Of a stretch of 64,000 bases of DNA, positions 1 through 60,600 are shown piece by piece. Both the position numbers and the translations under genes were made by a program. Every line of letters begins with the position of its first letter. The stretch's first letter is position 1. The notes under the pieces are model-generated. The model saw only the letters and a program-made list of their open reading frames with translations. It made no database searches and was not told the origin of the DNA. Origin of the DNA: Lytechinus pictus (Eukaryota); assembly GCF_037042905.1 (NCBI RefSeq), contig NC_087245.1:1550001-1614000 (forward strand), written 5' to 3'.

Positions 1-524
1 GCAAGGCAGGCGGCAAGGACGAGTCCAAGACGCCTAGCTTTGCTGTTGTTAGCGTTCGTGCAACCGCGCCGGCCGACTTCGTCTTCGATCTTCGAGCAAA
101 TTCCCCACCTGGCTGGGCCTTGGGCCCGTTTCCCAACACTGTCAGAAAGTCTAACTTCTTCTAAAGAACTAGGCATTGTCGCCTATACTTTTAGGCATTA
201 CATTGCAAAAGCCAAGGACAAGCAAGAAGGAATATTAGAAGAAAGGTTGATTTGAAGAAAGAATTAATTAGGAAAGAAAAGACCCCCAAGGCAAAACACT
301 TGGATGTCTTTTTAAAGATAGTGCACATTACATACTTAATGTAATAAGGGTGTCAAAAACACTAAAATATTGAAAAAAGGGTATCTATTTTCGCTAGGAA
401 AGCTACGTGTCGAGTGTTTAGGTCAAATTTGCGAGGGTCTAAAAATTAAGACTAAATTTTTTTGTAAAGGATGTACTTTTTGCCCCAAGTGTTTAGAGTA
501 TGATTTGTGCAAGGTGTGGGGGGT

Positions 525-1216
525 GAGTGAGCATAAACAATGTGAAAAAAGGATACCAAAAACTAATTTGGCGGGGGGTATCTGTATTTCAAATAGAAAA
601 TCACATGTCTAAAAAGTTCAATATCTGCTCTTTTATTTGATACCTCAATCACAGAAAATGGTGAAGAAGTAAAAAAATGCTGTTCCCTCAAAACAATGCT
701 TGTATTTCCATAATTTCATTAAATAAACGTGTTTTTACCGGTTTCCCTCAGAAGATCTCGCACGGTTACCAAAAGAGATTTAATGCATGGCTGATCGTCA
801 ACAAAAAGGAAATAAGTGAGTCTGAAGTTCAGACTCTGAACGCTAGCCTGTAAAAACTCTTCATTTTATGAAATTATTGAAATTCAAGCCTTATTTCAAA
901 TAAGCAGAACTTTGTAATTTCTTGACCATTTTCTGTAATTTAGTTATCAAATTAAAGAGCAGATATTGAACTTTTTAAAAATGTGGTTTTCTTTTTGAAA
1001 CCCAGATACAGCCCGCCAAGTGACTTTTTGGTATCCCCTCTTCAAATTGTTTTTGCTCACTCATGCGTGAATGAGAAATAATGTAAGCAATTTCAATTGA
1101 AAGAAGAGATTCTAAGCTTTACATTGGTAGGTCATTTGTCTATTGTATTTTTGATTAAGTTATGATAAAGTTAAACCATTGATAAATCTCGGTTTTTTTT
1201 TTAGTGGGACGCACTG
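525..1216. mobile_element. Truncated copy of the 59790-60603 MITE
   Basis: Colinear similarity ending GTGGGACGCACTG|TA. Confidence 0.8.
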
Positions 1217-4156
1217 TATACATGTACACCTATGCATACAACATACATTGTGTATCGAGGGCATGCAAGGCTGGGTGGAATTAAAACTTTCTGACCTCTT
1301 TTAGGTTGGTGTTTAATTGTGAATGTGATACATTAGTTTATTTTTGACAAATTATCTCGGTAACATTTTTTAAAACTGTATCAAGTATTTAAAAACAATT
1401 TTTATCATTATTATCTTGTCATTTTGTTACTATCACTTGCGTAATCGAGTTATCCCAAGTGTCTAATCGGGATCTGCTGAATATTCGATCAGTGTAAATT
1501 TTGCTAATAGATTTAATAGCGATCGGCGGCAAGCCATTCGATCAATCGATGTTTACTCCCAGGCCTAGTCTATATGAAACAAAGTATATCATAAATGAAT
1601 TTAAATCGATACTCATTAATCAAATGGGAAAATATGCAAAATACATGTAAATATGTACCTAATGTGTTACCATGATCATTTTAGATTTTTCATTTGTAAG
1701 AAATGTGTCAATTTATACCCAATATTAGATTGTAAAAAATAATACAATAATATAGGTTTAAGTGAGTGTGTTTGTAAAGAGAGACCGATAGAGCTGGGAG
1801 ATGGAATATGAGACGTAGAAGAAAAAGAGGAAAGCAAGAAAAAGGCAGGGAGGGGGAGATAAAAGAAAAAAGGGAAAGAGAATAGGGAGGAGAGAGAGAG
1901 GGGGATCATACCCGGCTATGCTTGAACAGTGTCCTAATGATTTTTGTGACAAATGGCAAGGCATGATAACTTAGAATTATAAAAATTACATGCATATAAT
2001 GTTCACATTTATTAGCTAAGAATAAACTTATCCGAACTGAGATGAGTGGATACAGGAAATGAATTGGAAAGCAGATAGGAATAGAAATAGTGGAAGAGAG
2101 AGAGAGAAAGAGAAGTAAAGATATTGATGGTGGAAGAGAAACAGAGAAAAAGGTCACATTTTTTCATACATACTGCAGTAATACATATTTTGGCAATTTT
2201 TGTGATTTCAATTGAAATTTTAAATTAATTGAGCATCAGTGAATAATTGCTCATATGAAAGAAAAACGTTTTGATTAACAAAGGCAAATCAAATGAAATT
2301 TGAGTTTGCCAACATAAAAAGACCACAACATCAGAATCATGTAATCGGCATTTTACAAAAACAACAATCTTCTAATGATAATAACTTTTTTTCAATTTTG
2401 GATGCAGGCCGCACTCATTAAGGGTATAAAAAACACCAATTTAAAAAAAAGGGTGGTTCTGAAAGAATGGTCAATCGCGGGGTCAAATGTATTGAGGGTA
2501 TTTTTTTTTTAAGACTAGCCAAATGTGTTTCGAGTATGTTTTTTCTCCAAGCTTTTGCCCCGCGGCTTTTCCTCTTGTTTCTGGAAAGTATTTTGTTTCT
2601 TCCCGATTGTACAAACCTTGTTTAGGGGCCAAAATGTGTAAATGAAGCCCGCGAAAAACTTGTTTAGGGGGTTATTTTGCACACAGAGAAAAACTCGTTT
2701 AGGGGGTGTTTGGATATAATTTGGTCACACATGTGTACAGCAATACATTTGACTGGCCCCCGGGAATCGTCACGGCACACAGTACACAAACGCACCTTTT
2801 TTTTTAAAGCTAGCTTTCTTCCCACTACGTATAAGTTTGCACCAATCACAACAAGACTCAAAACAAAGGCTGAAACAATTAGATGTGAAAACTCAATAAC
2901 TTGCTCCTCCGATCACATCAGCAAATCAGTACGGTAATCTGAAAATCAATATAATTAAAAATATCTCCTGCCGATTTTGTGATTATTTTGGTGGATAAAA
3001 TATTTTTTATGTGAGATTGTTCACTCTGATTCAGAGTTTGATCATTGTGCCGATGCAGTATTGAGAACCAATCAATTTGCTCCTGCCTGCGTGGCAGGTG
3101 GGAGTTCCGGCCATCAGCTACATGTATGTATGCTGACTTTGTGTGTAGATCAAAGGAAATGGCGCAAACTGGCGTGCAATTTGAATTGAGGAAAGTTGTT
3201 AACTTTGTTTTTTCTCTCTCTCTCTTCTGTATTTTTTCTTTTTGAAATTTGGGAAAACTTTGTAAAATTTCTTTTAACATTGAGAATTTTGCTTGCCAGA
3301 TTTGGGCAATTAGTTTTTGTCTTTACTACAAAACACTTGCCCGACTTTAATTTTTACTTGCTCTGGGCAATCGGGCAAGCGCTCATGTCACACCCTGTTT
3401 TAGGGATATATGCTTGATTATTTTACCCTGTCTGTTTCTATTATTAGAGAAACGCAACCGGAATTCGACATGTGCCTCCATTCGACATGGCAAACCCATT
3501 TCACAATCCAGCACATTCCTTCACCACAACACCCTCAAAAACACACTCCAAACACATTTTTATAACACAGGCACTTTCACTTACCCCATGAAAGTCCGGA
3601 TTTTAACTCCAAAATCCCCTTTAAAAATTTAAATATTTCTGTTAAAAATAAGGAATTTTTGCCATATTCCAGAGCATGCGTTGATTTAACTCAGATTAAA
3701 GAAGCGGGGTTGCCGAAAAATGTGCTAAAAAGGGAAAAATCTATTTTTTTGTTCTAAGCTCGCAAACGTCTTCGCAAATTTAGGATCGCATCTCCAAAAT
3801 CACTTATCAAAAAATAAAAATGGAGAAAGGGTAACACATTGAATTTGCACAGAAATCAAGTTAACAGCAGACTAGTGACAGGCACAGGCCTCTATTCAAC
3901 ATGGGGTTAGAGCATGATGGGGGAGTGAATGGATGGCAGGTCTTATGACATAGTGATTATAGTAATTAGAGAGCTAAAGGTATTTCAAATAGGCACAATT
4001 AGCAATGTCAATGATGTGTCATCGTACAATTTCCTCCAGATTTATCATAAAACTGATCCCTACTCAACGAAGATTTGTATTGTATATGCTTGCATTTTCT
4101 GTGGAATTGAGGCATTTATGAACTTTTAAACCTTGACTATTTCCTCTATATCACAG

Positions 4157-33077: not shown

Positions 33078-33482
33078 AGATCTAGTCACGTATTGTATTA
33101 ATTACTGGACACTATCATGATTCCCGACGCACATATTACTGCGTACGAAAACAATTTCGTACCGTAAGGCTTCTGCAGTTCAATTTCACAGAGCAATAGT
33201 ATACTATAGTGAGTGATTGTATTAGTATTACCGACCGGCCTTGTAAGTTGTATTACCGTAAGGGTACTAGTATTCAACCCGTTTGAAGAGTTTCCTCAAA
33301 TATATAGAAATATAGAATTTACCTGAATTTCAGACCCGTCTTATTTCCAAGAGCAAATGCTGGTTATTCTTTTTCCGTTATCTTTTTCTTCAACCAGTTG
33401 ACTGTGTGCGCGGGCGATCGAATTATACGGCGACGGATTTTGGTACTAGTATTCAACCCGTCGGTACTAGTATTCAACCTAG

Positions 33483-34025
33483 TGTTGTAAAAATGAAAGT
33501 TGTGGGTTACAGATATGTGATGGCACGAGACACATACGATTATGATGGGCGAGTGGTTTAAACTTACAATTACAACACTGACAAGGATTAGGACTCACTA
33601 ATACACAAATGGGTTACCGACGGTACGAGACAGTGACAACAACTAATACTCACCTGACACTTGTACAGACGATGCCACACGGTAGATAAACAGGTATACT
33701 AATTCTATGTTGCTTCTATGTTACTTGTAGACCATGGCGCCTGGTGGGGAACAGCTGGGATGCATGTCCACACTCGATGGCGTCTCTGGGTCTTCTCTCT
33801 GTGGTGTCGGGATTCAATCTCTCAGCACCAGCTTGTGTACGTGCTGTGCAACGCACACACGTAGCAGGCGTAGGAGCATATAAAGGCTCCTCCAATCAGG
33901 AGCGCTCCTCGCATACACACAGCACATACACAGACTTAATATACATGAACATAGATCAATACATATATACTAATACACAGACTAATACATATATGGTACT
34001 ACAGGTACATGGCAAATTTACTACA
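33483..34025 (-). repeat. 3' LTR (543 bp)
   Basis: Differs from the other LTR at about 7 positions by eye; preceded on - strand by the polypurine tract at ~34026-34033. Confidence 0.93.
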
Positions 34026-35068
34026 TTCCTCCCGGTTCCATCAGATTGCGACATATATTGACAAATCTATGAATTGACTATATTGTGCAATCTCAATAGA
34101 AAAATACAGATATGAAGAACTCTGACAGAGGAATGTAATATATGCCTATATGATTAAAACTGATTAAATACATGACATCAATAAAATACCTCAAATACAT
34201 AAAAAGTGTGATCTGAGGACATAAACTTGTTTCTATAATAACTTGTTCATTTAAAAAGGTTGCTGGTCCAGCAAAATCAAATATCTTATCGCTTGAGACC
34301 AGCAAATATACACTTTGAGAAACAAGAACAAGTTAATGGTAAGTAATCCGGCCAGTCTGGCCCAGTCTTGTCTATGTATTGATAGTTGAAACAAAGAATA
34401 TATTCTTATTTAGTGCAAGTCTAAAAGACTGAAAGAAGGTGTGTTCATCCTTCAAAGTGCACTTCTTTACATATAGATTGTTCAGGTTGACTCTTGGTCA
34501 GTGCTGTATATCAAGTTGTATATTGTACTATTAATAAGCATAACAATGAAATAAAGCCAATTTGGCTGGAGCTCTGTTACCAATATATAGGCCTGTACAA
34601 TGTGACCTTTACAAATATGATATATGATTGGTAATATGTTTGAGCTCTTAAAAGCATGTAAAGTAATGATACTTCAACCAGATCTGGTGCAAATAAATAT
34701 AACAACCTGGACTTGACATACATACATAGTATTTTCTCTTTGAGAAAAACTACTACTATTTCAACATCCTGTATGACAATATTTCCAGGGTTGTTTATAT
34801 TAGCCTTTGCAAACAAGGTAAAGGATCTATGGTTGAAATATCTATATATCTTTTATGAAGTATAAAATATATACAAATATGATAAAAGAATTATCTATTG
34901 CATAACCAGTGTTTGCACCAATTACTTCATATGTCACCTGAAGAGGTAAAAACTATTGAAAAATAAGAAGTGTGCCTTCACCTTCAGTGACTATTAAAAG
35001 AAATACAACGTATAACAGAAATTTCAATTGCAGGACTTTCAGCAACTGATCAAGGAGATACTACTCCA

Positions 35069-37015
35069 TTATTGGGGTGGTGGCCAGGGAGGAAGGAGCC
35101 ACGGACAAGGTATAATAAATGGGTCATTACTTAAACTACAGACATATCTCTGGTTCCACCAGAGAAGAGAACTGAGGAATTCAAGGATGGACAGCTTAGG
35201 AGGGGTACTTCCCCAAAGCATTTGCACAAGATAACTCTGCCCATGCTTGGCATCCTCAGTAGAGGCTCGACTGTCCTCTGACACAGTTACAAAACTTACA
35301 TTATCTACACCTATGGTATTAGCTGTAACATCACTTACACATGTAGTATTGACAGTTATATCGTCTACACATGTGGTATTTACAGTTACATCATCTACAC
35401 TTAAGATATCTACACGTTTTACTGCTACACGTTCTGGACAGTTCCTCTTAATGTGTCCAGATTTGTTACATGCAAAACAAACATCACGACAAGACAACTG
35501 GGATTCAGTGTCTTCTGTCGAAGGAGAATGTGTATGCCTATTCAGCTCTGGGACAGCAGTTACCGATCCCTGGACTGAGGACTGGAAGGACTTCATCTGT
35601 GCCCCTGGAGCAGATTGAATATCAACCTTCTTCTCCAGATTGGGCACTCGGTCCTCCAGACTGTTCTGACCGGAGGACTGCTGAGCATTAGAGGCATGCC
35701 CGGAAACACCCATACGGTTAACTCTGGGATCCTCCTCGACAGTATCGTAAGACCTTTGTCTTGCATACTTTAGCCGATGCTGAAACCACCGAACTAAGTA
35801 AATGGCATCATCGAGATTCCGAGGACGTGATTTGATAGCGTATTTTCCCGCTTCATGGTCTAATAAACCCTGACAAAACTTTTGCACTATTTGCCTCTCA
35901 AAAATCTCCTCAGGCAATCCGTCAAAGACGCGTGAAGCGTAGGATAGGACACGGTCGGCCCATTCCCCCTTTGTTTCGGTTGTTGCCTGCTGCGCAAAAT
36001 CAAATTGCAATTGTGCGACAGGAAATTCTTTGGAAGCAAATCTTTGCTCAAGCTTCTTGATAACATCTGTATAGGGAATGTTTAGCTTGGAAGAAACAAT
36101 AATTGATGCAAAATATTTGATTGCGCTTCCCTCAAGACAGAAGCAAAGTTCATTGAGCTGTTGGGCTTGACCCCAACCGCGATCTTCCGAATATAGCTGG
36201 AAATTACGTATAAAAGTGTGCCAACATCCTCTACCATCGAAGGTCACGTACTTGGGCAACGAGGACACTCGCGGACCAGTACACCCACGAGAATAAGATC
36301 TCAGGGCATCGCAACCTCGATCTAAGGACGGAAGCCTTGAATCTAGAGTAGATGAATGCCGAGATGATTTCAGTTCTTCTGACAATGATTTCATTTGAAC
36401 AGCCATACAGTGCATCATCATTGCTATATAAGCATCATCTTTGGAATGATCATTAGAAGTATGACAAGAAGATTGTGGATAAGCATCATATTCATTTGTA
36501 ATCTGAACCCTACTATTTGATCTGGATTCACACTGAGTATAAGATGATTGTTTGGAATCCTCACTAATATAGGGAGTATTAGGAGCATACATGTATCTAG
36601 AGTGCTCAGTATATTGTGAATGTCTATCCTGATCAACGTTGGAAGAACCATATGACCTATGACCAAAATTCCTGGAACAATCTCCATAATGATCAGTCCT
36701 AGAATAACAAGATGCATCAGGATGCAAATTATGAGCCAGAGGCTTTCTACCAGTATTGGGTTCAGCATATTTATATTGGCATTTATCAGCACATTTATAT
36801 ACAAGATCTGTTAAATCGAGATCAGATAAATAATGTATCCTTGAACAATCAAACCTCTCATAAACAAATTCATCTACAAAATTTCTTGGATAACCAAGCT
36901 TGTACAGATTATTTGCCAGTGAATACTCATATAAGTATCCCCTACTAGTATTACGACTGTCTATAATGTCTTCAACTAATCCTTGTCTTGCTCTGGCGAT
37001 TTCACTTTGCATCAT
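35069..37015 (-). CDS. Gag-like polyprotein (capsid-like domain + CCHC zinc knuckle), 648 aa
   Basis: Uninterrupted ORF inside LTR element; capsid-like block FDGRGCW..F..NF...RGW....L...L.G.A...F...Y..VI..LEQRF....Q...ET..EWADRV....F.QGL....RPRNLDDAI; knuckle CFACNKSGHIKRNC (CX2CX4HX4C). Confidence 0.88.
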   Translation of the reverse strand: MMQSEIARARQGLVEDIIDSRNTSRGYLYEYSLANNLYKLGYPRNFVDEFVYERFDCSRIHYLSDLDLTDLVYKCADKCQYKYAEPNTGRKPLAHNLHPDASCYSRTDHYGDCSRNFGHRSYGSSNVDQDRHSQYTEHSRYMYAPNTPYISEDSKQSSYTQCESRSNSRVQITNEYDAYPQSSCHTSNDHSKDDAYIAMMMHCMAVQMKSLSEELKSSRHSSTLDSRLPSLDRGCDALRSYSRGCTGPRVSSLPKYVTFDGRGCWHTFIRNFQLYSEDRGWGQAQQLNELCFCLEGSAIKYFASIIVSSKLNIPYTDVIKKLEQRFASKEFPVAQLQFDFAQQATTETKGEWADRVLSYASRVFDGLPEEIFERQIVQKFCQGLLDHEAGKYAIKSRPRNLDDAIYLVRWFQHRLKYARQRSYDTVEEDPRVNRMGVSGHASNAQQSSGQNSLEDRVPNLEKKVDIQSAPGAQMKSFQSSVQGSVTAVPELNRHTHSPSTEDTESQLSCRDVCFACNKSGHIKRNCPERVAVKRVDILSVDDVTVNTTCVDDITVNTTCVSDVTANTIGVDNVSFVTVSEDSRASTEDAKHGQSYLVQMLWGSTPPKLSILEFLSSLLWWNQRYVCSLSNDPFIIPCPWLLPPWPPPQ

Positions 37016-39540
37016 TATGAATTCCAGATAAATTCAGGAAAGTATTATTGATGATCACCTTGGTGATTCAAAGGCATATTCTTAAACATATTTTAAATGA
37101 TACTTTCATTTATTCAATGATCTACAGTGTATTAAACTTAGCAGAATAAAGCTTGCAGATCAGTGAAAGAACTTAACTAGGTTTGTTTATACTTGTGTCA
37201 CTGAACACACTTACTGCCAAGGAAAGAGTGAAGTACTGCAATACTTGTACTGCTAAGAACAAGCGTCTGACTCTGAATATTAATAATAAATGTACACACT
37301 CCTGTAGCAATGGATGTATTCAGTGAAAGTATATTTACAAAGTACAGTGCAGCTTCAAGTTTCAGAAACTACACTTGTAGAATAGAATATCAAACTTCTA
37401 CTACTCTGAGTAATCGCAGAAGTGTCAATAAGTTTTACTTACTCTACGACTATTAAAAGAACCTAACAAGGATTCAACTTATCGAAGCCTCAACGATTTA
37501 CAGGAGTAGCATTCAATAATAATTGTTTATTTCTGATGAATGCAATATATAAATGCAATATATAAATGTTTATTTCTGATGAATGCAATATATAAATGTC
37601 AAACACACATTTATCCCACATCCAATTTTCTTTCTTTTTTTTCCTCTTTTTTTTTTTTCTTTTTTTTTAGAATGGGGATAAGTTACCAACTAAAAAATGA
37701 TGAGACTACTATTTAGAAATCAACTTGCGCAAAATGACAGCAGTGAATTTTGTACTTCACTGATGAATGGGATTCTAGAGCCTGAATAGAAATTTGCAAA
37801 TTTTCAGCGCAAGAATGATGCTCCAAAAATACAAAAGCAACTATATGAAAAAAATAATTTCAAAGAATGTTGATATCAATTATTCTGATATCAAAGATCA
37901 ATAGTATCTGTACTTTTCACTTAAAATCAGAATCAAGAGTTGATTGAATTAAAATAAGTATTTTCAAGAACCTTATTAAAATTTATTCAGAACTTTTTGA
38001 CCTTTACTTGAGAACAATCTTTCTTTTAAAAATATAGAAATTAAATCTCTCATATAGGAATTAAATTTACAAGCAAGAATTATTCCAAAGAAAAATTCCT
38101 GATCTAACAATGCTTGTTAAAAAGTAATCTACTAAGAAAACCTGAATTTCAAACAGACAGAAAGACAATCCAGGATAACCTCCTAGAAAAATTTCCTACA
38201 AAGAACTAAGGGCCTGAAATTAAATTCCAAGTCCTCGTTCAAACAAGTGTACACCGAGTCAAAAGGCAAAGCAAAACAATTGCACTTGTTGGCTCCAGGT
38301 ATACACGGTCAGGAAATTACAAACACCTGAAAGATGAACAAGATTATCTGCAACAGAAAATTCCCTAAACTATATGAAGATACTAGATCTATTCGGGATT
38401 TATTAAATTCTCACTTTGGAATTCTTCTGATCCAATAAAACGAGTATTTTTATGGTTAAATTTCGAGCTAGTTTTACAAAAATCAGAAGTGTCACAAAGA
38501 TCTGAAATATATTTTAGGTAAAAAACCAATTCACTGCTCTAACTCAACTGATAAGCTCAAATTCAAGAGGTTAAAGGAATTCGAATAAATTATTTTAATT
38601 CCCAGTAAGAGTCGAATTGACATCAAACAATGCAAAGACAAAGTAGTGATAGTGCTGCCTACAGCACAACACCTACACGTGAGATAGGCACACGCTATTG
38701 CCGTTGGCTGGTGGAGATCTACTTGATCGACACCGTCACCGGACAAAGCTGAAAAAAGTACAAACGAGAATATGGCAATATGGGAACAAGGAACTTAGCT
38801 CAATTCACGTAAATATTGAGTCAAGAGACAATTGGCAGCTAAATCCAGCAAATTGTCAGTAAAAACTGACGAAAAGGAAACTCGTTCAAAATTTGCCTTC
38901 ACGGAAACGATAGCCGGCTCGTGAACGTTACCCCTGCCTGGAGCTACCGGCCAGACGGAGAGGTGCGCTGCGCTGGTGTTGGTTGGAAACCGCGCGACGT
39001 TAAATCTAAAATTAACTAATAAAGAATGATCCAATTACAAAATCAACTTCTAGTTCTACGAGTTCCTACTTAGAACTAATCTTTAAAATAAATCAACGGC
39101 CAATCACTATAATAGTATAAAATCAGAGTTTCGCAAACTCTAACTCTGATCGACTGTTGTGTTTACGAGTCTCGATCAAGTGAAAAATATAAGTTAGAAG
39201 TCACGTGATTCGGCTCGGCAGTGCTTCACCGAGCGAGCTAGGCGATCGAGGGTAGATTGTCAATTTTTGGTCAAAACAATCTTATTACTTTTTGACTGGC
39301 AAATCAATGGAAATCAAAATCAGCACATAGATTTCTCAATAGTGATGATTCAATTTATTTCGAATCAAACCGAGACGACATATAAACATGTAACATGAAG
39401 AACATAGAGAATAATATATCTAAGTTATCAAGAAATTAATAGCCTACCGGTTTCTCTGCAAAACTACACAATTTCAAAAAATTATGGAGCCTACACCCAA
39501 CCAGCCCAAACTACCAATTATTTGATAGGGAAGATAAAAT

Positions 39541-39760
39541 TATTCAGACTTCTCTTTCTCAGTCCCAACGGGTCTGACACTGGTATTGACAGAAGTCTAT
39601 TCACATAAATATTTCAGACTTCTCTTTTTCCAGTCCCAACGGGTCTGACACTGGAATTATTATACAGAAGTCTATTCACACAAATAATTCAGACGTCTAT
39701 TTTTTCCAGTCCCAACGGGTCTGACACTGGAATTATTTATAGATGTCTATATATTCACAC
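39541..39760. repeat. Three tandem ~71-76 bp stem-loop units with invariant 24-nt core CAGTCCCAACGGGTCTGACACTGG
   Basis: Cores start at 39560, 39631, 39707; each is enclosed by an outer inverted repeat AGACTTCT...AGAAGTCT (AGACGTCTAT...ATAGATGTCT in unit 3). Confidence 0.9.
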
Positions 39761-40992
39761 ACAATTCTACCGAGTGGGTGAACAATTAGCAACAATGAAT
39801 AACAAATAACTTTTATATTTAGACAATGACAATTTATTATTACAAGAAAGTGAAGAAACAATCACAATATCATATGTGGTGAATGAAATGCACTGAAGAA
39901 AATTCACAAAATGTGTATTAAGAACAAAATTCAAGAGTATATTTTCAAGTTACAGGTAAGATGCGAAGCTCAGAAAACCCACCTATTTTCTAGTAACAGG
40001 TAAGATCTGAAATTCAGAAAAACCCACCTCTAACGTACCACCGACACAAGTGTAATTTCGAGTTGAGTAAAAATTCAGATTATTACTCAACCCGGCAACC
40101 AGGAGTATTAGAACTTCTAACACTCTTTCTGCCACTCAATGTGTACAGAACTGGCTGTAAAAACACTTGCCAAATGTCGATAGAAAATATATACTGGAAA
40201 TTTTATAGAAATGTATGAACAACTCTACGCCCTCAAAATATTGGTGCACTGCCCGATATGCAAGAATATGAAATTGTAGGAAACTTATACCATCTGGAAT
40301 AATTACTGAGGATCGAGAGAAAATTTCAAGTTCAAATTAACTTTTCCAATCCAATAAATCCACCAAATACTCACACCCGACTTTTTTTTTGGAAGTGGTG
40401 TGGTGTGAATGTTCCAAATTTGAAAGAAAGCTTATAAAGACAATGGCGGACTAAAAATATCCTCGCCTAGAAGCAGATCTCAAAGAATTCACAAACAAAA
40501 GCAACGAGATGGTAAGCGACGCAAAAATATGCAAGGAACGAAATTCTCGACGGCGAGCCAAACAATAGCAGAGACTCGCGAAGAATGCGATAAGAAATGC
40601 ACGTGCAACCAAACAATGAAGGGCGTGTGCACCTTTGGTGTGCACAGAGAATAAAATGCAACGTAGTGGACATGAAATAATTTCCTAGATATGGTAAATA
40701 TATATCAAAATCCACTTGTATCAAACTAGAAATGATATCATGTACGGAAAAATGATAAAACTTAAACAAGATGTGTACGAGATGCATGCATGTAAATCCA
40801 CGCAATCACGGCACGCAAATTTACAATTAACGGTAGAGAGCGGAAAACTTCCCACTCACTCTCCGTTCGTTATACACTTCAAAATCACTCACAAATGACT
40901 TTCATGAGCAAATATGAAGTATGAACGGACATGAAATGATAAAAATGAAAATGACAGGCGCACAGGACGATCCGAAAACTCGCAATCGCCAA

Positions 40993-41535
40993 TGTTGTAA
41001 AAATGGAAGATGTGGGTTACAGATATGTGATGGCACGAGATACGATACGTTACGATGGGCGAGTGGTTTAAACTTACAATTACAACACTGACAAGGATTA
41101 GGACTCACTAATACACAAATGGGTTACCGACGGTACGAGACAGTGACAACAACTAATACTCACCTGACACTTGTACAGACGATGCCACACGGTAGATAAA
41201 CAGGTATACTAATTCTATGTTGCTTCTAAGTTACTTGTAGACCATGGCGCCTGGTGGGGAACAGCTGGGATGCATGTCCACACTCGATGGCGTCTCTGGG
41301 TCTTCTCTCTGTGGTGTCGGGATTCAATCTCTCAGCACCAGCTTGTGTACGTGCTGTGCAACGCACACACGTAGCAGGCGTAGGAGCATATAAAGGCTCC
41401 TCCAATCAGGAGCGCTCCTCGCATACACACAGCACATACACAGACTTAATATACATGAACATAGATCAATACATATATACTAATACACAGACTAATACAT
41501 ATATGGTACTACAGGTACATGGCAAATTTACTACA
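40993..41535 (-). repeat. 5' LTR (543 bp)
   Basis: Near-identical to 33483-34025; termini TGTAGTAAA...TTTACAACA on - strand; ATTGG and TTTATAT boxes near 41388-41406; CAG|GTGAGT donor at 41166-41158. Confidence 0.93.
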
Positions 41536-42559
41536 CTAGCGATGAAAGATGGCCCTGTCTCTCAATCTGCCCTTGTCCCATCCGACTATGGACTAGACCA
41601 TTTGAGATGAGACCAAACAGGGAATTAATCAAACTCAAAGCCAGAGACTTACATAGATCTAGATCTAATTTAGCAATCTAAACCCTTTTGAGATTTGCTA
41701 TCAATCCTCACTAGGTTGAATACTAGTACCATTCAGTGCAAAAGGCCATCGCCGCATAATTCGACCCTCCGCGCATACAGTCGACAGATTGACAAAGAAA
41801 ATATCGACAACAGATTACCCTGGAAATAACAAAGGTGTGAAATTAAGATAAATTCCCCATTTCTAAATATTTTGGGGAATATGTCAAAATCTTTGAATTA
41901 TGCCAGGTTGAATACTAGTACCCATACGGTACCGAACGCGCGCATCATACGCATCAGAAAATAATTTTATACGCTCAAAATTTTGCAACATCCTTCCAAA
42001 GAGAACTTGAATAGAAAGATGATGAAAAGTTGTAAAAAACACATTATCAAAGTCTTAATATTCTAAAAATAACAAAAATATGGTCAAAATAGCTCATCAG
42101 TGATTTTGTTGTTTTTTCAACTTTTCCCATAGAAAACACACGTTCGGTAATACGATACCTTTTCATGTGACCAAAATATTTCACATGCGAAGAGGGGTCC
42201 GATTGGAAGCTAATATCGTAAAAAGGACTAACGATTTCGGCAAAATTTTTACATATTTATATTTTGTAGGTAATTGTGTATTTATTGTGAAAGTTTGGTG
42301 AATTTTATGAGAATAATGTGTTTGATATGATTGAATTCATGAAAAGTGTTCGGTAATACGATCCACTACCATACCGGTACATAAAACAACATGAACAAGA
42401 ACAAGATTGCAAAAACAAGTCAAGCCTAAGGCAAAAAATTCAAACTTTTACCTTATGTATCTCTAAAATCATAAAATGACAGAAAATGCTTAAAATATCA
42501 TATAACATAGGAATTGCATTGACAATTGATATATTTTCTGACGGATATATGGGCCTATA

Positions 42560-54600: not shown

Positions 54601-57600
54601 TATTTTTGCATCTGTCAAACAAAAATTATTCATTAAATATTTATTATTCATTTCTAAAATTGTGAATTCAAACTTTTGAAATTGATTAATGACTTATTAA
54701 GTTTGCTTTGATATTTCAGACCAAGCCTCATCCACTGATATGGGCCAAGCTGCATGGTTTTCCTTTCTGGCCTGCTAAGGTTAGTATAATGTGTTTGATT
54801 TATTATTTACATATTTTCAGCCATTCTCAACCCCCTCCCAATCATTGAAATAATAATAAATACAATGAATAATAAACAATGTGACATTTTGTCAATTGTG
54901 CTCTCAGCTTCAGCACACTTATCCTTTGTCTTTTGTCTGTCCAAAGTTAAAGTTTCCTATTTTTAACTTTCATCTCTTAGAAACATGTGGCCAAAGAATC
55001 ATTCTGAGGATAGTTGTCAGAACTTGATCAAGTAGATTGCATGTCCTGTTGGCAAGGATTAGCACTGTGAACTGCCTATGTTGCATTGAAATAGAATCAT
55101 TTTAGTTCTGAAAAGTATATTCTAATTTTGTACCAAAACATTTGATTAAACATTCAAAGTTATTTAATTCACTGTAACCGTCCAAAATACTTAAAGGGAT
55201 GGTCCGGGCTGAAAAAAATTCACAGAGCAAAATGCTGAAAATTTCATCAAAATTGGATAACAAATAACGAAGTTATTGGATTTTAAAATTTAGCAATATT
55301 TTGTGAAAACAGTTATATGCACATCTACATGAAAATTCATTTCCTTTTTCTTATGTTATTACATGAAATCATAAATGTTTAAGTTTGTCATACATGTGTA
55401 AATGATGTGTCTTCATTATGATAAAATAAGTTGCGGCAGTAAATAACTAATGCACTTAATCAGTTGTTTAATCCAATTGTTTTAGTTCTTGGTAGAAAAA
55501 TTTGAATTAACTTAATTTAAAATAATAAATACAAAAGAACAAGTGGGGATATGACATCATCAGCCCACCTAATGAATATTTTAAAGACATGCCTAGAACT
55601 ATTTCACCAGAATAATGCAAATCTTTAAAATTCAATATAAACTTATTTGTTATCCGATTTTAATCAAATTTTCAGCATTTTGCATTGTGAATGTTACTCT
55701 ATTTATTGAGATATAAATATCTCCAGCCTGGATCACCCCTTTAAGCTTTCTTAATCAACCCCAGTATTCCTATCATCTGGCCACTGATCATATCTGTGTG
55801 TTTTTGTTTTTAAATGCAGGCAATGAAGGAAGAGGATGGTCTCATTGAAGCTAGATTCTTTGGACAGCACGATAGAGCCATGATCCCAGCTCACAACTGC
55901 TTCCAATACTCTACCAAGATCCCCTTCCCAGCCTCAAAGAAGAGACTAACAGGACTTAATGCTGCCATCAAGGAGGCAGAGATTCATATCAAGAAACTGG
56001 AGGAAAAGCAAGGTCACCCCTTCAAGTATGCCCCTCACCTGACTCCATATGATCCCAACAAGCGCTACACAACTAGCTCTCTGGCAGTCATGCCCGATGG
56101 AAAAGTCAAGAGCCTGACTGATGCAGGAAAGAATGCTGAATTGAAGGCGAAGGCTGTTGAAAATGGTGAAGAGGCGTCTAAGAAGGAGGAAGAGGAAAAG
56201 ACAGATGACAAAATGGATATTTCTGTTGCCTCTAGTGTGGAGGATGATAAGACATATGGGAAAACAGATGCATTGACAGAGATGAAGACAGACTCCTCTC
56301 CAGCATCTAGTCTGGATGGCAATGAGCTTGATGTAACAGGAGACTCATCACAGTCTCCATACCATGTTGATTTGGAGCATAGCTATGCTTCTAGGGAATT
56401 CCTGGCAATGCAAAATGAGGAGGGAAAAGCAGACCAAGAAACAGGGAAGGCCTTTCAAAAGGAGCATAATGATGATTCTAATGAAAATGTGACTCAGTCA
56501 AGAGTGAAGGAGGACGAGGGTGAACTTTCTGATACAGCAGGCAAGGGATACCATAATGACGATGAGGGACAATCCATCGATACTGACAGAAAAAGGAAAG
56601 TCTCTGAGTCTCCTTCTCAACAGCCTGAGAAGATGCCAAGGATGTCTTCAAACAAGGATAGCAACCTATCACCAGGAAGAACAGGACAAGGTACTGTAGA
56701 ACCAGATACCGAAGATCCTGATAAACTTAAAACTTGTCCCAGGGATGTCACAAAAGAAGAAGGTACACACACTGTCGAGACCATTGATTCTCCAGTTTCA
56801 AAGAAACCTGTCGCCAAAGATGGTGACAACTTTAGTATCTTGCCCAGCCGCCTTCCTAAACTTGATGATCTAGAGTCCAATGTGAATTCATCTGAAGCAA
56901 GTTCAAGCATCCCTAAAGAAGAGGTGAAATCTAATCAGTCAACGCCTAGAAAGGACACCTTCCTTCTTAACCTGAGCAAGACCATCGACACCTGTAAGGC
57001 ATCCCTAGGCATTGATGAAGATATGGAAGAGCTGGGAGATGAAGGAGGCAGAGACGAAGAGGATGGTTTGGATGATGCTGATATGACAGGAGATGAAACA
57101 ATGGAGAGTGAGGTTGATGATGAGGAAGAGGAAGCAGAGAAAGGGTCCTTTCAGGCTGCAAGCCATTCCAATGACACAAGCACCATGGATGATGCAACTG
57201 ATGAGTATGCAGGAGAAAATTTGACAGAAAGTAAAGTCAATCAGAAGCTCAAAGATTATCATAAGGTTTTTAAAGAGGTAGTCAAGACACTTGAAACGGG
57301 CGTGGACAGTCCTGTGATATCTGAAAAGGATAGCCTTGCTATGGAGACAGAAGTTGTCAGTGATAGTGAGGAAATCAATTCCAGAGGATTGAGGGGTGAT
57401 GAAAGCAATGAGAAAGAGAAGACAAATGATCAGACTTTGGCAGAGTCTTCTAAGGTTATAGAGAATGATGAGTCTCAATCAGATGGAAAGTTGAAAGACA
57501 TGCCAGCTCAGGCAATGCCAACCCAAGTCATGGATGACAAAGCTTCTATTGATGATGATGTTGAAGATGATGATGAAGATGATGCTGGTGAAGATGATGA

Positions 57601-60600
57601 TTATGATGGGGATTCCTCAGATGGAGTATTACTCATTGATGAAGGAAATGATGAGTCAGGCGATCAAGAGAAGAAAGAAGATGCCACAAGAAAATGCAAT
57701 AAAACAGATGGTGAAACGAAGATAACAAGGGATACAGACGTTACTCCTGCAGACACTAATGACCAGAAGGAAAAGAAACCAGAAGGGATACAATCCAAAG
57801 TCAGTCAGGATATATCTTCTAGTGAATCAACCGAGCCTGAAGCTAAACAAGAAGAAGCAAAGGACAAAGAAAGCAGTCAAGAAGCCAAGAAGATACCAGC
57901 AGTGGGAGACAAGAAAGTTGCAGAACTGTCAAAGAGTTCTAAACAGTTAATGGATGGAACTCCAAAACCTGTGGAAATAGATCCAGACTACAAAATGTTA
58001 ATTGCCAAGGTAAAGATAAATCTCATTAAATGTAGGTCAGCCACACGTTTGTAATTATGTAAATTGCAACTTGTTTCAAAGATATATGAACAGGTAGTTA
58101 TTCATTGTATACAAATCTATGCATGTGCAAGTTGACTAAACCAATTTAACATTGATGTATTATGAGCCACATAGATATGCTTCAGTGATAGTTATTGCTG
58201 CCATGGCATTATTAAACCCAATACCCTATCCATGACTTTCCTGCTCCATATTCAGCCCCAACCGAAGTATTTATGTCTCTTTTTCTAATTGAAGCTGTGG
58301 CAGGTGATATTTGAAGGCCAATACTAAGTGATATGAAAACCTAGGCCCCTTAAAAAAACACTTCTCAGAGTACTGTGCAGTGATACTACAGTGATACATT
58401 AGCCAGATGCCAATTTGAAACAAAAATGAGGCGTTCTAATGTTATTTGATCTACGTCATCTCTTGTTATTGTAGGTTGTTGATGATGCAGTGAAGTCTTT
58501 TAAAGAGCTTGATTCTAGTCTTGAGGATGTTAGTGATGACATCAAGAAGCTGGTCCTTGATCTTAAGAAAGAAGTGATTTCACTCAAAGCAAAGCAAGAA
58601 CTTCAAGAGAAGGAGATGATGCATTGTAATAGTAAGTACAAATTGAGGTTTTTTTAAAAGAATTGTTGCAATAATCAAGTGACCTTCCAGAATTTGGCTT
58701 CAAATCTAATTTTGCAAGCTGTTGAAAGAAAAAAATCCTAAAACATTGTGTGAGCTTTTTACATTATTGAGTTATCTAACATAATTATGCCACCCCCTTC
58801 CAGTTGAATTTCAGTGCAATGGTGCAAAAAATGTCTTTTGAGCCCAATTTGGTTATATCTCTGTGTGCAACAGTTTGTAAAAGTGGATGTGAAACCCCAA
58901 ATCCCTAGCAAATTCTGTTTCCAACCACTATTCATAACTAGATAATTCTTTTTACTTTTCCTAACTAGAATTGAATGAATCGTATGTTATAAGTAAATAG
59001 AAAAGTATCGCTGACAATTTCATCAAAATTCTTGTTTTTTAAGTCGAAAAATAAGGAAATACATATGAAATTAAAAAAACAATGCAAGACAGAGGAAAGC
59101 ATTTTTATACTACTTTTTAATATAAATTTCATCAGAGTCCATCAGAAAGTTTTTTAACAAATGAAAAAATAGCCTTTCAGTGATTTATTTACACACAAAA
59201 TTACCTTTCTGGGCAGAACGCAAAAAAATAATCACTAAAAAATCTTAACTTTTGCAGCACTACAGTCACCTTGATTATCTTTTTTTACTCATAGATCTAG
59301 CTGCAGCAGAGATCCGCCAAGTGATGGAATACAGTAAAGATTGCAAGCTGAATAAGGTGAAGAGAAAGTTTGACCTACAGAGGAGAGATGCTATCTTTGA
59401 CACCAAGGGAAAGCAATGGGTAAGACATAGATAGAGAGCAGCCCTTGCATCAGCCGAGAAGGCATTTGTTTTGGGTTCCCACCTTAACCAGCCTTGCTAC
59501 CCTTGAAATTCTTGTCGGTGGTTCTAAGACAATTTTTTATTATACAAGCATGTGAGTAAATAATGATGGGAGGTTGTTCAATTTTAATGGAAAATAACAG
59601 TCTTCTTAGGACCTCTCTAGAGAAATGTAAATCACACCAAAAATGCAATACTGACAGGAACAATATATCAGTTTTATTAACCAAAGCTCAAGAAATTCTT
59701 AATGTTCAGATTTTCATAGTTTGACAGCTCTAGAACATTGACGGTCTTTTTCCCTTTTGTTGAGTGATATTGAGAGTGGCTTTGCTATACAGTGTGTCCC
59801 AGAAAAAACGAAACCGAGATTTAGCGATGATTTATCATAACTTAATCATAAATAAAATAGACAAATGACCTACCAATGTAAAGCTTAGAATCTCCTCTTT
59901 CATCTGGTATTACTTAGATTATTCCTCATTCACGCATGATTGAGCAAAAACAATTCGAAGAAAGGATGCCAAAAACTCATTTGGCGGGGGGTATCTGAAT
60001 TTCAAAAAGAAAATCACATGACTAAAAAGTTCAATATCTTCTCTTTTCTTTGATACCTAAATCACAGAAAATGGTCAAGTAGTAAAAAAGTTATGATCCC
60101 TCGAAACAATGCTTGTATTTCCATAATTTCATTAAATAAACGTGTTTTCACCGGTTTCCCGCAGAAGCTATCGCATGGTAACAAAAGACTTAATGCATGG
60201 CTGATCGTCAACAAAACGGAGTGTCGAGTGAGTTTGAACGCTAGCCTGTAAAACCTCTTAATTTTATGAAATTATTGAAATTCAAGCCTTATTTCAAATA
60301 ACCAGAACTTTCTTATTTCTTGACCATTTTCTGTAATTGAGGTATCAAATTAAAGAGCAGATATTGAACTTTTTAAAAATGTGGTTTTCTTTTTAAAACC
60401 TTGGCACGCCAAGTGGCTTTTTGTTATCCCCTTTTCAAATTGTTTTTGCTCACTCATGCGTGAATGAGAAATAATCTTATTAATTCCAGATGAAAGAGGA
60501 GATTATAAGCTTTAAAATGGTAGGTCATTTGTCTATTGTATCTGTGATTAAGTTATGATAAATCATCGCTAAATCTCGGTTTTGTTTTTTGTGGGACGCA

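Follow-up and report, generated by a model that had tools for sequence, protein, structure and literature searches.

A triplicated hairpin array in the long leader of a gag-only Ty3/gypsy retrotransposon from Lytechinus pictus: a candidate multivalent RNA signal

Tandem repeats in the 5' UTRs of Gypsy elements and multi-hairpin packaging signals in retroviruses are both already known. The former have been described in Drosophila gypsy, ZAM, Tirant and accord, and in the Culex Mag-lineage elements cqgypsy_24/25/66 (PMC8872304; PMC3286476); such complex repeats, placed between the primer-binding site (PBS) and gag, are common in the group and have been characterised as DNA insulators or enhancers. 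Among the latter, the core encapsidation signal of MoMuLV combines the hairpins DIS-2, SL-C and SL-D with a GACG pair and UCUG sites for the nucleocapsid protein (NC), which has a single knuckle and binds tightly only with three hairpins (PMC7599994). The yeast elements Ty1 and Ty3 offer a third point of reference, with Gag-bound cis signals in a packaging region and segments lying off the PBS that pair with the tRNA primer (PMC4974528). It is mainly in these yeast elements and in retroviruses that the signals governing packaging and translation of LTR-retrotransposon RNA have been mapped. If each marine-invertebrate Gypsy lineage evolves its own multimerised leader hairpin, the resulting arrays would constitute a natural test of how Gag distinguishes the RNA of its own family from that of others, and of how gag-only passengers get packaged.

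The window analysed here is a 64,000-nucleotide stretch of the Lytechinus pictus genome (NC_087245.1, positions 1,550,001 to 1,614,000), in which an array of three similar units is carried by an 8,053-bp LTR element on the minus strand (Table 1). Judged by its sequence, the element is a young, gag-only, non-autonomous Ty3/gypsy retrotransposon. It possesses paired TG...CA LTRs, a PBS, a polypurine tract and a target duplication, and its Gag is homologous to that of elements encoding PR-RT-RH-INT, an order seen in the relatives L004 and L007. The two LTRs differ by 5 mismatches and 1 gap over 542 aligned bases (about 1% apart; about 99% alike). No open frame of at least 120 aa lies between gag and the 3' LTR, no pol frame was found in the element, and its Gag contains no helix-hairpin-helix (HhH) domain. 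The PBS starts like those of the relatives L043 and L008. CTAG occurs at both flanks of the element and is likely a 4-bp target duplication; on the 5' side, a unique 177-bp piece is itself flanked by two CTAG copies, and an inverted repeat (41536-41731 and 33441-33484) surrounds the element, which occupies its centre. The best protein matches of the Gag come from L. pictus (61% over the query; 92% over one third) and Strongylocentrotus, and in a quick tree, made with the careful search still unfinished, it is placed alongside three proteins from echinoids, within a clade of 21 rows that has a support of 99. No relative of the Gag was found in viral contigs. The tail of the Gag (35069-35400, minus strand) contains a 30-bp tandem repeat and ends in PWPPP, and this tail also occurs as a fusion in a G-patch gene model (P0004). 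Elsewhere in the window, a 746-aa open frame (55814-58054, plus strand) encodes acidic repeats with no Pfam match.

Table 1. Features of the element that carries the array, and hairpin regions in relatives (window coordinates unless a relative is named)
Feature	Coordinates	Strand	Evidence or remarks
5' LTR	40993..41535	-	543 bp, TG...CA; contains consensus-like splice donor at 41163
Primer-binding site (PBS)	40979..40991	-	adjoins 5' LTR
Leader, ~4 kb	37016..40978	-	sense-strand AUG depletion
Structured domain directly upstream of array	39930..40200	-	folding, repeat and hybrid-site analyses
Array unit 1 (element order)	39686..39752	-	core 39707-39730; has two-sided outer-stem change
Array unit 2 (element order)	39611..39677	-	core 39631-39654
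Array unit 3 (element order)	39541..39602	-	core 39560-39583; most diverged; predicted switch between two tips
gag open frame, 654 aa stop to stop	35069..37033	-	one CCHC zinc knuckle
Polypurine tract ahead of 3' LTR	34026..34040	-	sequence
3' LTR	33483..34025	-	LTR comparison
TGT-N3-ACA hairpin region, L008	leader 186-2006		
TGT-N3-ACA hairpin region, L043	leader 1036-2800		
TGT-N3-ACA hairpin region, L044	upstream 1-1799		

The array had been described as consisting of three units with an identical 24-nt core, spaced 71 and 76 bp apart in a retroelement leader, and each of these points is correct: the three cores are exact copies, the spacings are as claimed, and the array begins about 1,224 nt downstream of the PBS, with 2,526 nt separating its end from the first AUG of gag, i.e., in the segment of the 5' leader, between PBS and gag, where a psi element would be sought. 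No fourth copy occurs in the window at up to 3 mismatches, and none of 100 shuffles produced a match. The units are arranged head to tail every ~73-75 bp and are recovered as a tandem repeat (39537-39750; period 75, 2.9 copies, 88% matches), a form that the array shares with the insulator/enhancer repeats of Gypsy 5' UTRs. It differs from them in that each unit is an inverted repeat with conserved stems, situated in a leader under sense-strand selection. Like the MoMuLV signal, it presents several leader hairpins to a single-knuckle Gag, and UCUG is found at the base of the outer stem of each unit, a weak likeness against a leader background of 6 per kb. Unlike the MoMuLV signal, its units, candidate binding sites for Gag, are tandem duplicates of one type and lie 1.2 kb from the PBS, and their predicted loop, ACCCG, is neither a GACG tetraloop nor self-complementary, so that the paired GACG loops and kissing dimers of gammaretroviruses have no counterpart here; no 7-nt complement of the loop region exists anywhere in the element. 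The signals of Ty1 are not tandem arrays and map within ~500 nt of the 5' end (PMC4974528); the present array is farther from the PBS, so that a psi role for it is no more than putative. Moreover, the partner of the extra segments in Ty1 and Ty3 is the primer that these elements themselves use; the PBS-like match in the array, considered below, concerns another PBS type.

The units differ from each other by 6, 8 and 10 substitutions in ~70 nt, plus indels. As this divergence is about tenfold that between the LTRs, the triplication predates the present insertion. The linkers had been said to vary in length while the core does not, and the changes fall mostly in the internal-loop linkers, where 8 of 14 columns are variable as against 5 of 47 in stem and tip (Fisher P=0.0008, with gap columns that are not independent). 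The invariance of the core is modestly above chance: a 24-nt invariant run has P=0.04 when computed on 14 mutation events and P=0.001 on 21 variable columns. Several of the changes between units sit in A/T runs in the alignment. The expectation that the core would be conserved beyond this element did not hold in the collections searched, which were other than the host genome and included no positive-control genome: exact copies numbered zero in viral contigs (20-mer) and in metagenome contigs (23-mer), and a covariance model (R1) retrieved from 9 sources nothing but the three copies on which it had been trained, with matches in 0 of 3 genomes. A two-copy motif in L003 that resembles the core at 12 of 14 positions was also considered; in three genomes its 12-mer matched 6 times and the reversed control twice, and it was not accepted as a relative of the core, none of the 4 matches outside L003 being shown to lie in a leader.

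In the predicted sense-strand fold, each unit comprises a 9-bp outer stem, an A-rich internal loop and a 7-bp stem, above which, past a G-G mismatch, a tip stem of 4 bp (two of them G-U) closes the ACCCG loop. The outer stem accords with the 8-10 bp that had been proposed. The remainder of the proposed fold, a CAGU/ACUG stem with a GUCAGA bulge and a CCC-GUU-GGG tip, is 3.2 kcal/mol costlier than the predicted tip (-2.7 against -5.9 kcal/mol), and the CCC-GUU-GGG pairs have probabilities of 0.00, 0.00 and 0.29 in the three units, forming in the third with a different lower stem; the mirror image of this fold is the form taken by the antisense strand. Across the three copies, 17 of the 20 sense pairs are invariant, 1 is changed on one side, 2 are broken and none is compensatory, which leaves the claimed covariation unsupported. 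Both bases of one outer pair have changed in unit 1, as had been noticed, but the outcome in the sense strand is an A-C mismatch, pairing (G-U) being kept only on the antisense strand, and three copies are insufficient to order the stem changes. Folding of the array region is more stable than all of 200 shuffles (z -4.4), a value inflated by the tandem inverted-repeat copies and to be set against the 15% of 229 windows of the element with z<-2. The sense strand is favoured over the antisense in unit 2 (-18.7 vs -14.6) and unit 3 (-16.1 vs -14.9), with a tie in unit 1, and likewise in the consensus fold (-19.5 vs -13.9). When the whole array is folded, units 2 and 3 favour cross-pairing, with their own tips at 0.23 and 0.08. 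No Rfam family was found on the array, the one match elsewhere being at chance level (E 1.6). Overall, the original prediction of a structured RNA element bound by Gag gains from the leader location, the hairpins, the concentration of changes in the linkers and the multimerised, covarying leader hairpins of autonomous relatives described below, whereas the specific fold, the claimed covariation and, in the collections searched, conservation of the core outside this element are not supported.

A different line of evidence concerns the leader as a whole. Dinucleotide shuffling predicts 74.9 AUG triplets for its sense strand, which has 22, a count that none of 200 shuffles matched or undercut; the antisense strand has 76 against 73.9 expected, and the depletion is present on both sides of the array. 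The same sense-only depletion is observed in all 8 leaders of relatives examined (L001, L003, L008 and L040-L044; no more than 1 shuffle in 200 had so few) and in none of 3 host pieces; together with that of the window element these leaders span 0.8-4 kb. Because the depletion is confined to the sense strand, the leader behaves like a selected mRNA 5' UTR and not like an intron; removal of the leader as an intron from the donor at 41163 is accordingly disfavoured by AUG depletion along its length, and a spliced isoform may use that donor. Most simply read, the leader is a 5' UTR of several kilobases through which ribosomes scan or shunt, which would place the array in translated genomic RNA. 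The leader harbours further structure: the domain directly upstream of the array folds as a long-helix multibranch with a 44-bp two-copy repeat (39940-40029), a duplicated hairpin whose 3' arms are complementary to the splice-donor consensus, and the most stable local hairpin of the element (37325-37410, minus strand; z -5.2; -24.4 sense vs -11.1 antisense) lies ~300 nt ahead of gag.

The relatives used for comparison are animal Gypsy contigs contaminating three bacterial assemblies and one metagenome, and those long enough for testing are autonomous Ty3/gypsy elements. One of the sources, the bacterial genome bin G001 from which L003 derives, contains 55 Gypsy Gag matches, pointing to heavy contamination by retroelements of an animal host. 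A preprint whose data cover echinoderm Gag-Pol elements and their PBS types may bear on the clade and the PBS (bioRxiv 10.1101/2023.10.26.564294). Repeated sequence amounts to at least 8% of the region upstream of gag in 13 of 21 relatives and in 2 of 12 host pieces; the count includes some closely related elements and perhaps stretches of LTR, and it omits 8 further loci, most of which had too short an upstream sequence. As a class, the repeats show no significant gain in sense-strand folding over the non-repeat leader (9 of 14 elements, P=0.14); a pooled version of the test (P=0.004) drew on overlapping windows and was set aside once the effect was lost in per-element testing. The repeat arrays of L005 and L007 fold poorly and do not form hairpins.

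The subclade of L008, L043 and L044, three autonomous families united with a support of 100 in the quick tree and sister to the lineage of the window element, is of a different kind. Hairpins of the form TGT-N3-ACA number 11, 7 and 5 in these leaders, respectively, against shuffle means of 0.8, 1.1 and 0.6 (0 of 300 as high), counts made after the motif had been noticed in L043 and L008 and including some L008 copies that are tandem kin. Twenty of the 23 fold better in the sense strand, compared with 63 of 124 in the background. Their stems, otherwise unrelated, are paired in 121 of 161 cells, where shuffling of the arms yields 73.6 (maximum 100 in 5,000), and they covary, with G-U pairs on the sense strand. 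These hairpins are a stronger RNA-element candidate than the window array itself. The two share a larger Gag clade, the same region of the element, multiple hairpins and an invariant tip; they differ in that the hairpins of the subclade are dispersed, occur in 5-11 copies, have covarying stems and an unrelated tip, and belong to autonomous elements with an HhH-bearing Gag. The TGT-N3-ACA motif is not enriched in the window element (1 copy vs 1.5 expected). Elsewhere, six CCG-N6-CGG hairpins occur in L001, and L006 bears a set of four located upstream of its PBS; each of these two sets includes one compensatory pair, and the four copies in L003 have none; none of the hairpin sets of the relatives shares the window core. 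In distant relatives, the leader thus contains arrays of predicted hairpins that are distinct from that of the window element. The window array exemplifies this pattern with weak support, and the most convincing evidence comes from the covarying TGT-N3-ACA array and from the clade-wide scarcity of AUG, confined to the sense strand, in leaders of several kilobases. Because the core was found nowhere else and the motif of the sister subclade is not enriched in the window element, the support that stem covariation lends to the window array is by analogy only. Such arrays in this clade are undescribed in the titles and abstract openings searched, a scope outside which lie most subscription journals and Repbase reports.

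We propose that the three hairpins have probably been kept by selection and may act in the manner of a psi element. More specifically, we give about even credence to a lineage-specific, multimerised hairpin with Gag or a host protein as its ligand, which would likely serve packaging or a switch from translation to packaging. Template slippage during reverse transcription would have tripled a hairpin-forming unit, of which selection would then have retained the stems and tip. The copies would constitute a multivalent landing site for Gag, the element's own or that of a helper, or for a host RNA-binding protein. Binding would mark the RNA for packaging and, occurring in a scanned leader, could also block translation, thereby switching the RNA from the one fate to the other. 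The MoMuLV signal, with its three hairpins and single-knuckle NC, provides the precedent for this mechanism (PMC7599994). The lack of compensatory pairs, the event-level P of 0.04 for core invariance and the cross-pairing of units 2 and 3 weigh against this proposal.

The first two of these points, along with the several changes in A/T runs, would equally be expected of a neutral tandem triplication, in which hairpins stall reverse transcriptase, slippage follows, and A/T-rich linkers mutate faster than a G/C-rich core. Repeats are common upstream of Gypsy gag, as seen in the relatives counted above and in Drosophila, where 19 of 49 5' UTRs are tandemly repeated (PMC8872304). On the other hand, the stems have been kept as well as the core, though the outer stem too is A/T-rich, the leader is under sense-strand selection, and the sister subclade displays strong stem covariation in hairpins that are dispersed and non-tandem. 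We regard a neutral origin as a serious but distinctly less probable account than a selected hairpin. A DNA-level function, with three transcription-factor sites forming an enhancer or insulator as in the 5' UTR repeats of gypsy and ZAM, has the merit of a role and position known for Gypsy leader repeats (PMC8872304; PMC3286476), and conservation of the core sequence including its loop is what a protein-DNA site would entail. A short DNA site has no need of the outer inverted arms, which are conserved as well, and the sense-strand G-U pairs of the covarying stems in the relatives point to RNA; an enhancer or insulator is hence improbable in our estimate.

A further reading arises from the resemblance of the core to a PBS. 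The core is similar to the commonest PBS of related Gypsy loci (exact in L069, L070, L072 and L074), a type that we take to be that of tRNA-Leu. It could then be a triplicated PBS mimic that pairs with the 3' end or a 3' fragment of a tRNA, serving either to anchor an additional tRNA or as a decoy that averts silencing by tRNA fragments (tRFs), an idea we hold to be quite improbable. In its fuller form, which we rate just as low, a hairpin-masked second-PBS mimic, tripled and accompanied by a fourth site 300 nt upstream, would capture a non-primer tRNA; the captured tRNA would anchor the gag-only element to a helper particle, or the sites would soak up silencing 3' tRNA fragments, the hairpins being opened by the chaperone activity of Gag. 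In the 8-kb element, the complement of this PBS finds its four best sites at ~40047 (~40022-40047; -23.2 kcal/mol), within the structured domain upstream of the array, and at the three cores, which score -19.0 apiece. On the antisense strand no site is as good as -17; 111 kb of host DNA contains 4 sites at the -19 level, which is also attained by 2 of 5,000 shuffled probes and by 4 of 5,000 shufflings of the core. Precedents exist in the split PBS segments of Ty1 and Ty3 (PMC4974528) and in the targeting of PBS sequences by 3'-tRFs (PMC7472051). Yet the match was recognised post hoc among tens of possible tRNAs, which brings the corrected chance to about 0.01-0.05. Opposite the terminal CA of the tRNA the two bases remain unpaired, and hence the core, which lies 1.2 kb from the LTR, is unable to prime. 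The hairpin masks the site, leaving net gains of -0.9, -0.7 and -5.1 kcal/mol with unit 2 not opened, and the element's own PBS belongs to another type. In the relatives such sites are not enriched, with 5 internal sense sites and 6 on the antisense strand over 27.7 kb, a tally that leaves out 5 sites judged to be the relatives' own PBS. A search for tRNA genes found none in the window and none in 12 PBS-like loci.

Finally, a structure acting on the antisense strand, e.g., in a host transcript, or a self-cleaving ribozyme is very unlikely, as the former draws on the CCC/GGG tip and on the G-U retained there by the two-sided change, i.e., one pair in three copies with a weaker consensus fold, and the latter has neither an Rfam ribozyme nor, in or beside the array, a hammerhead CUGAnGA core in the element sense.

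The relatives also revealed additional domains in their proteins. The N-terminus of Gag is a ComEA-like HhH domain (Pfam HHH_3) in all 5 relatives scanned (L003, L004, L006, L007 and L008). We found no description of such an N-terminal domain in the literature searched. The HhH noted in PMC10309623 belongs to the unrelated CERV protein. The integrases of L004 (2380-6954) and L007 (2407-6918) end in a PHD finger, and a third frame of L007 (6941-9367) ends in a TatD DNase domain.
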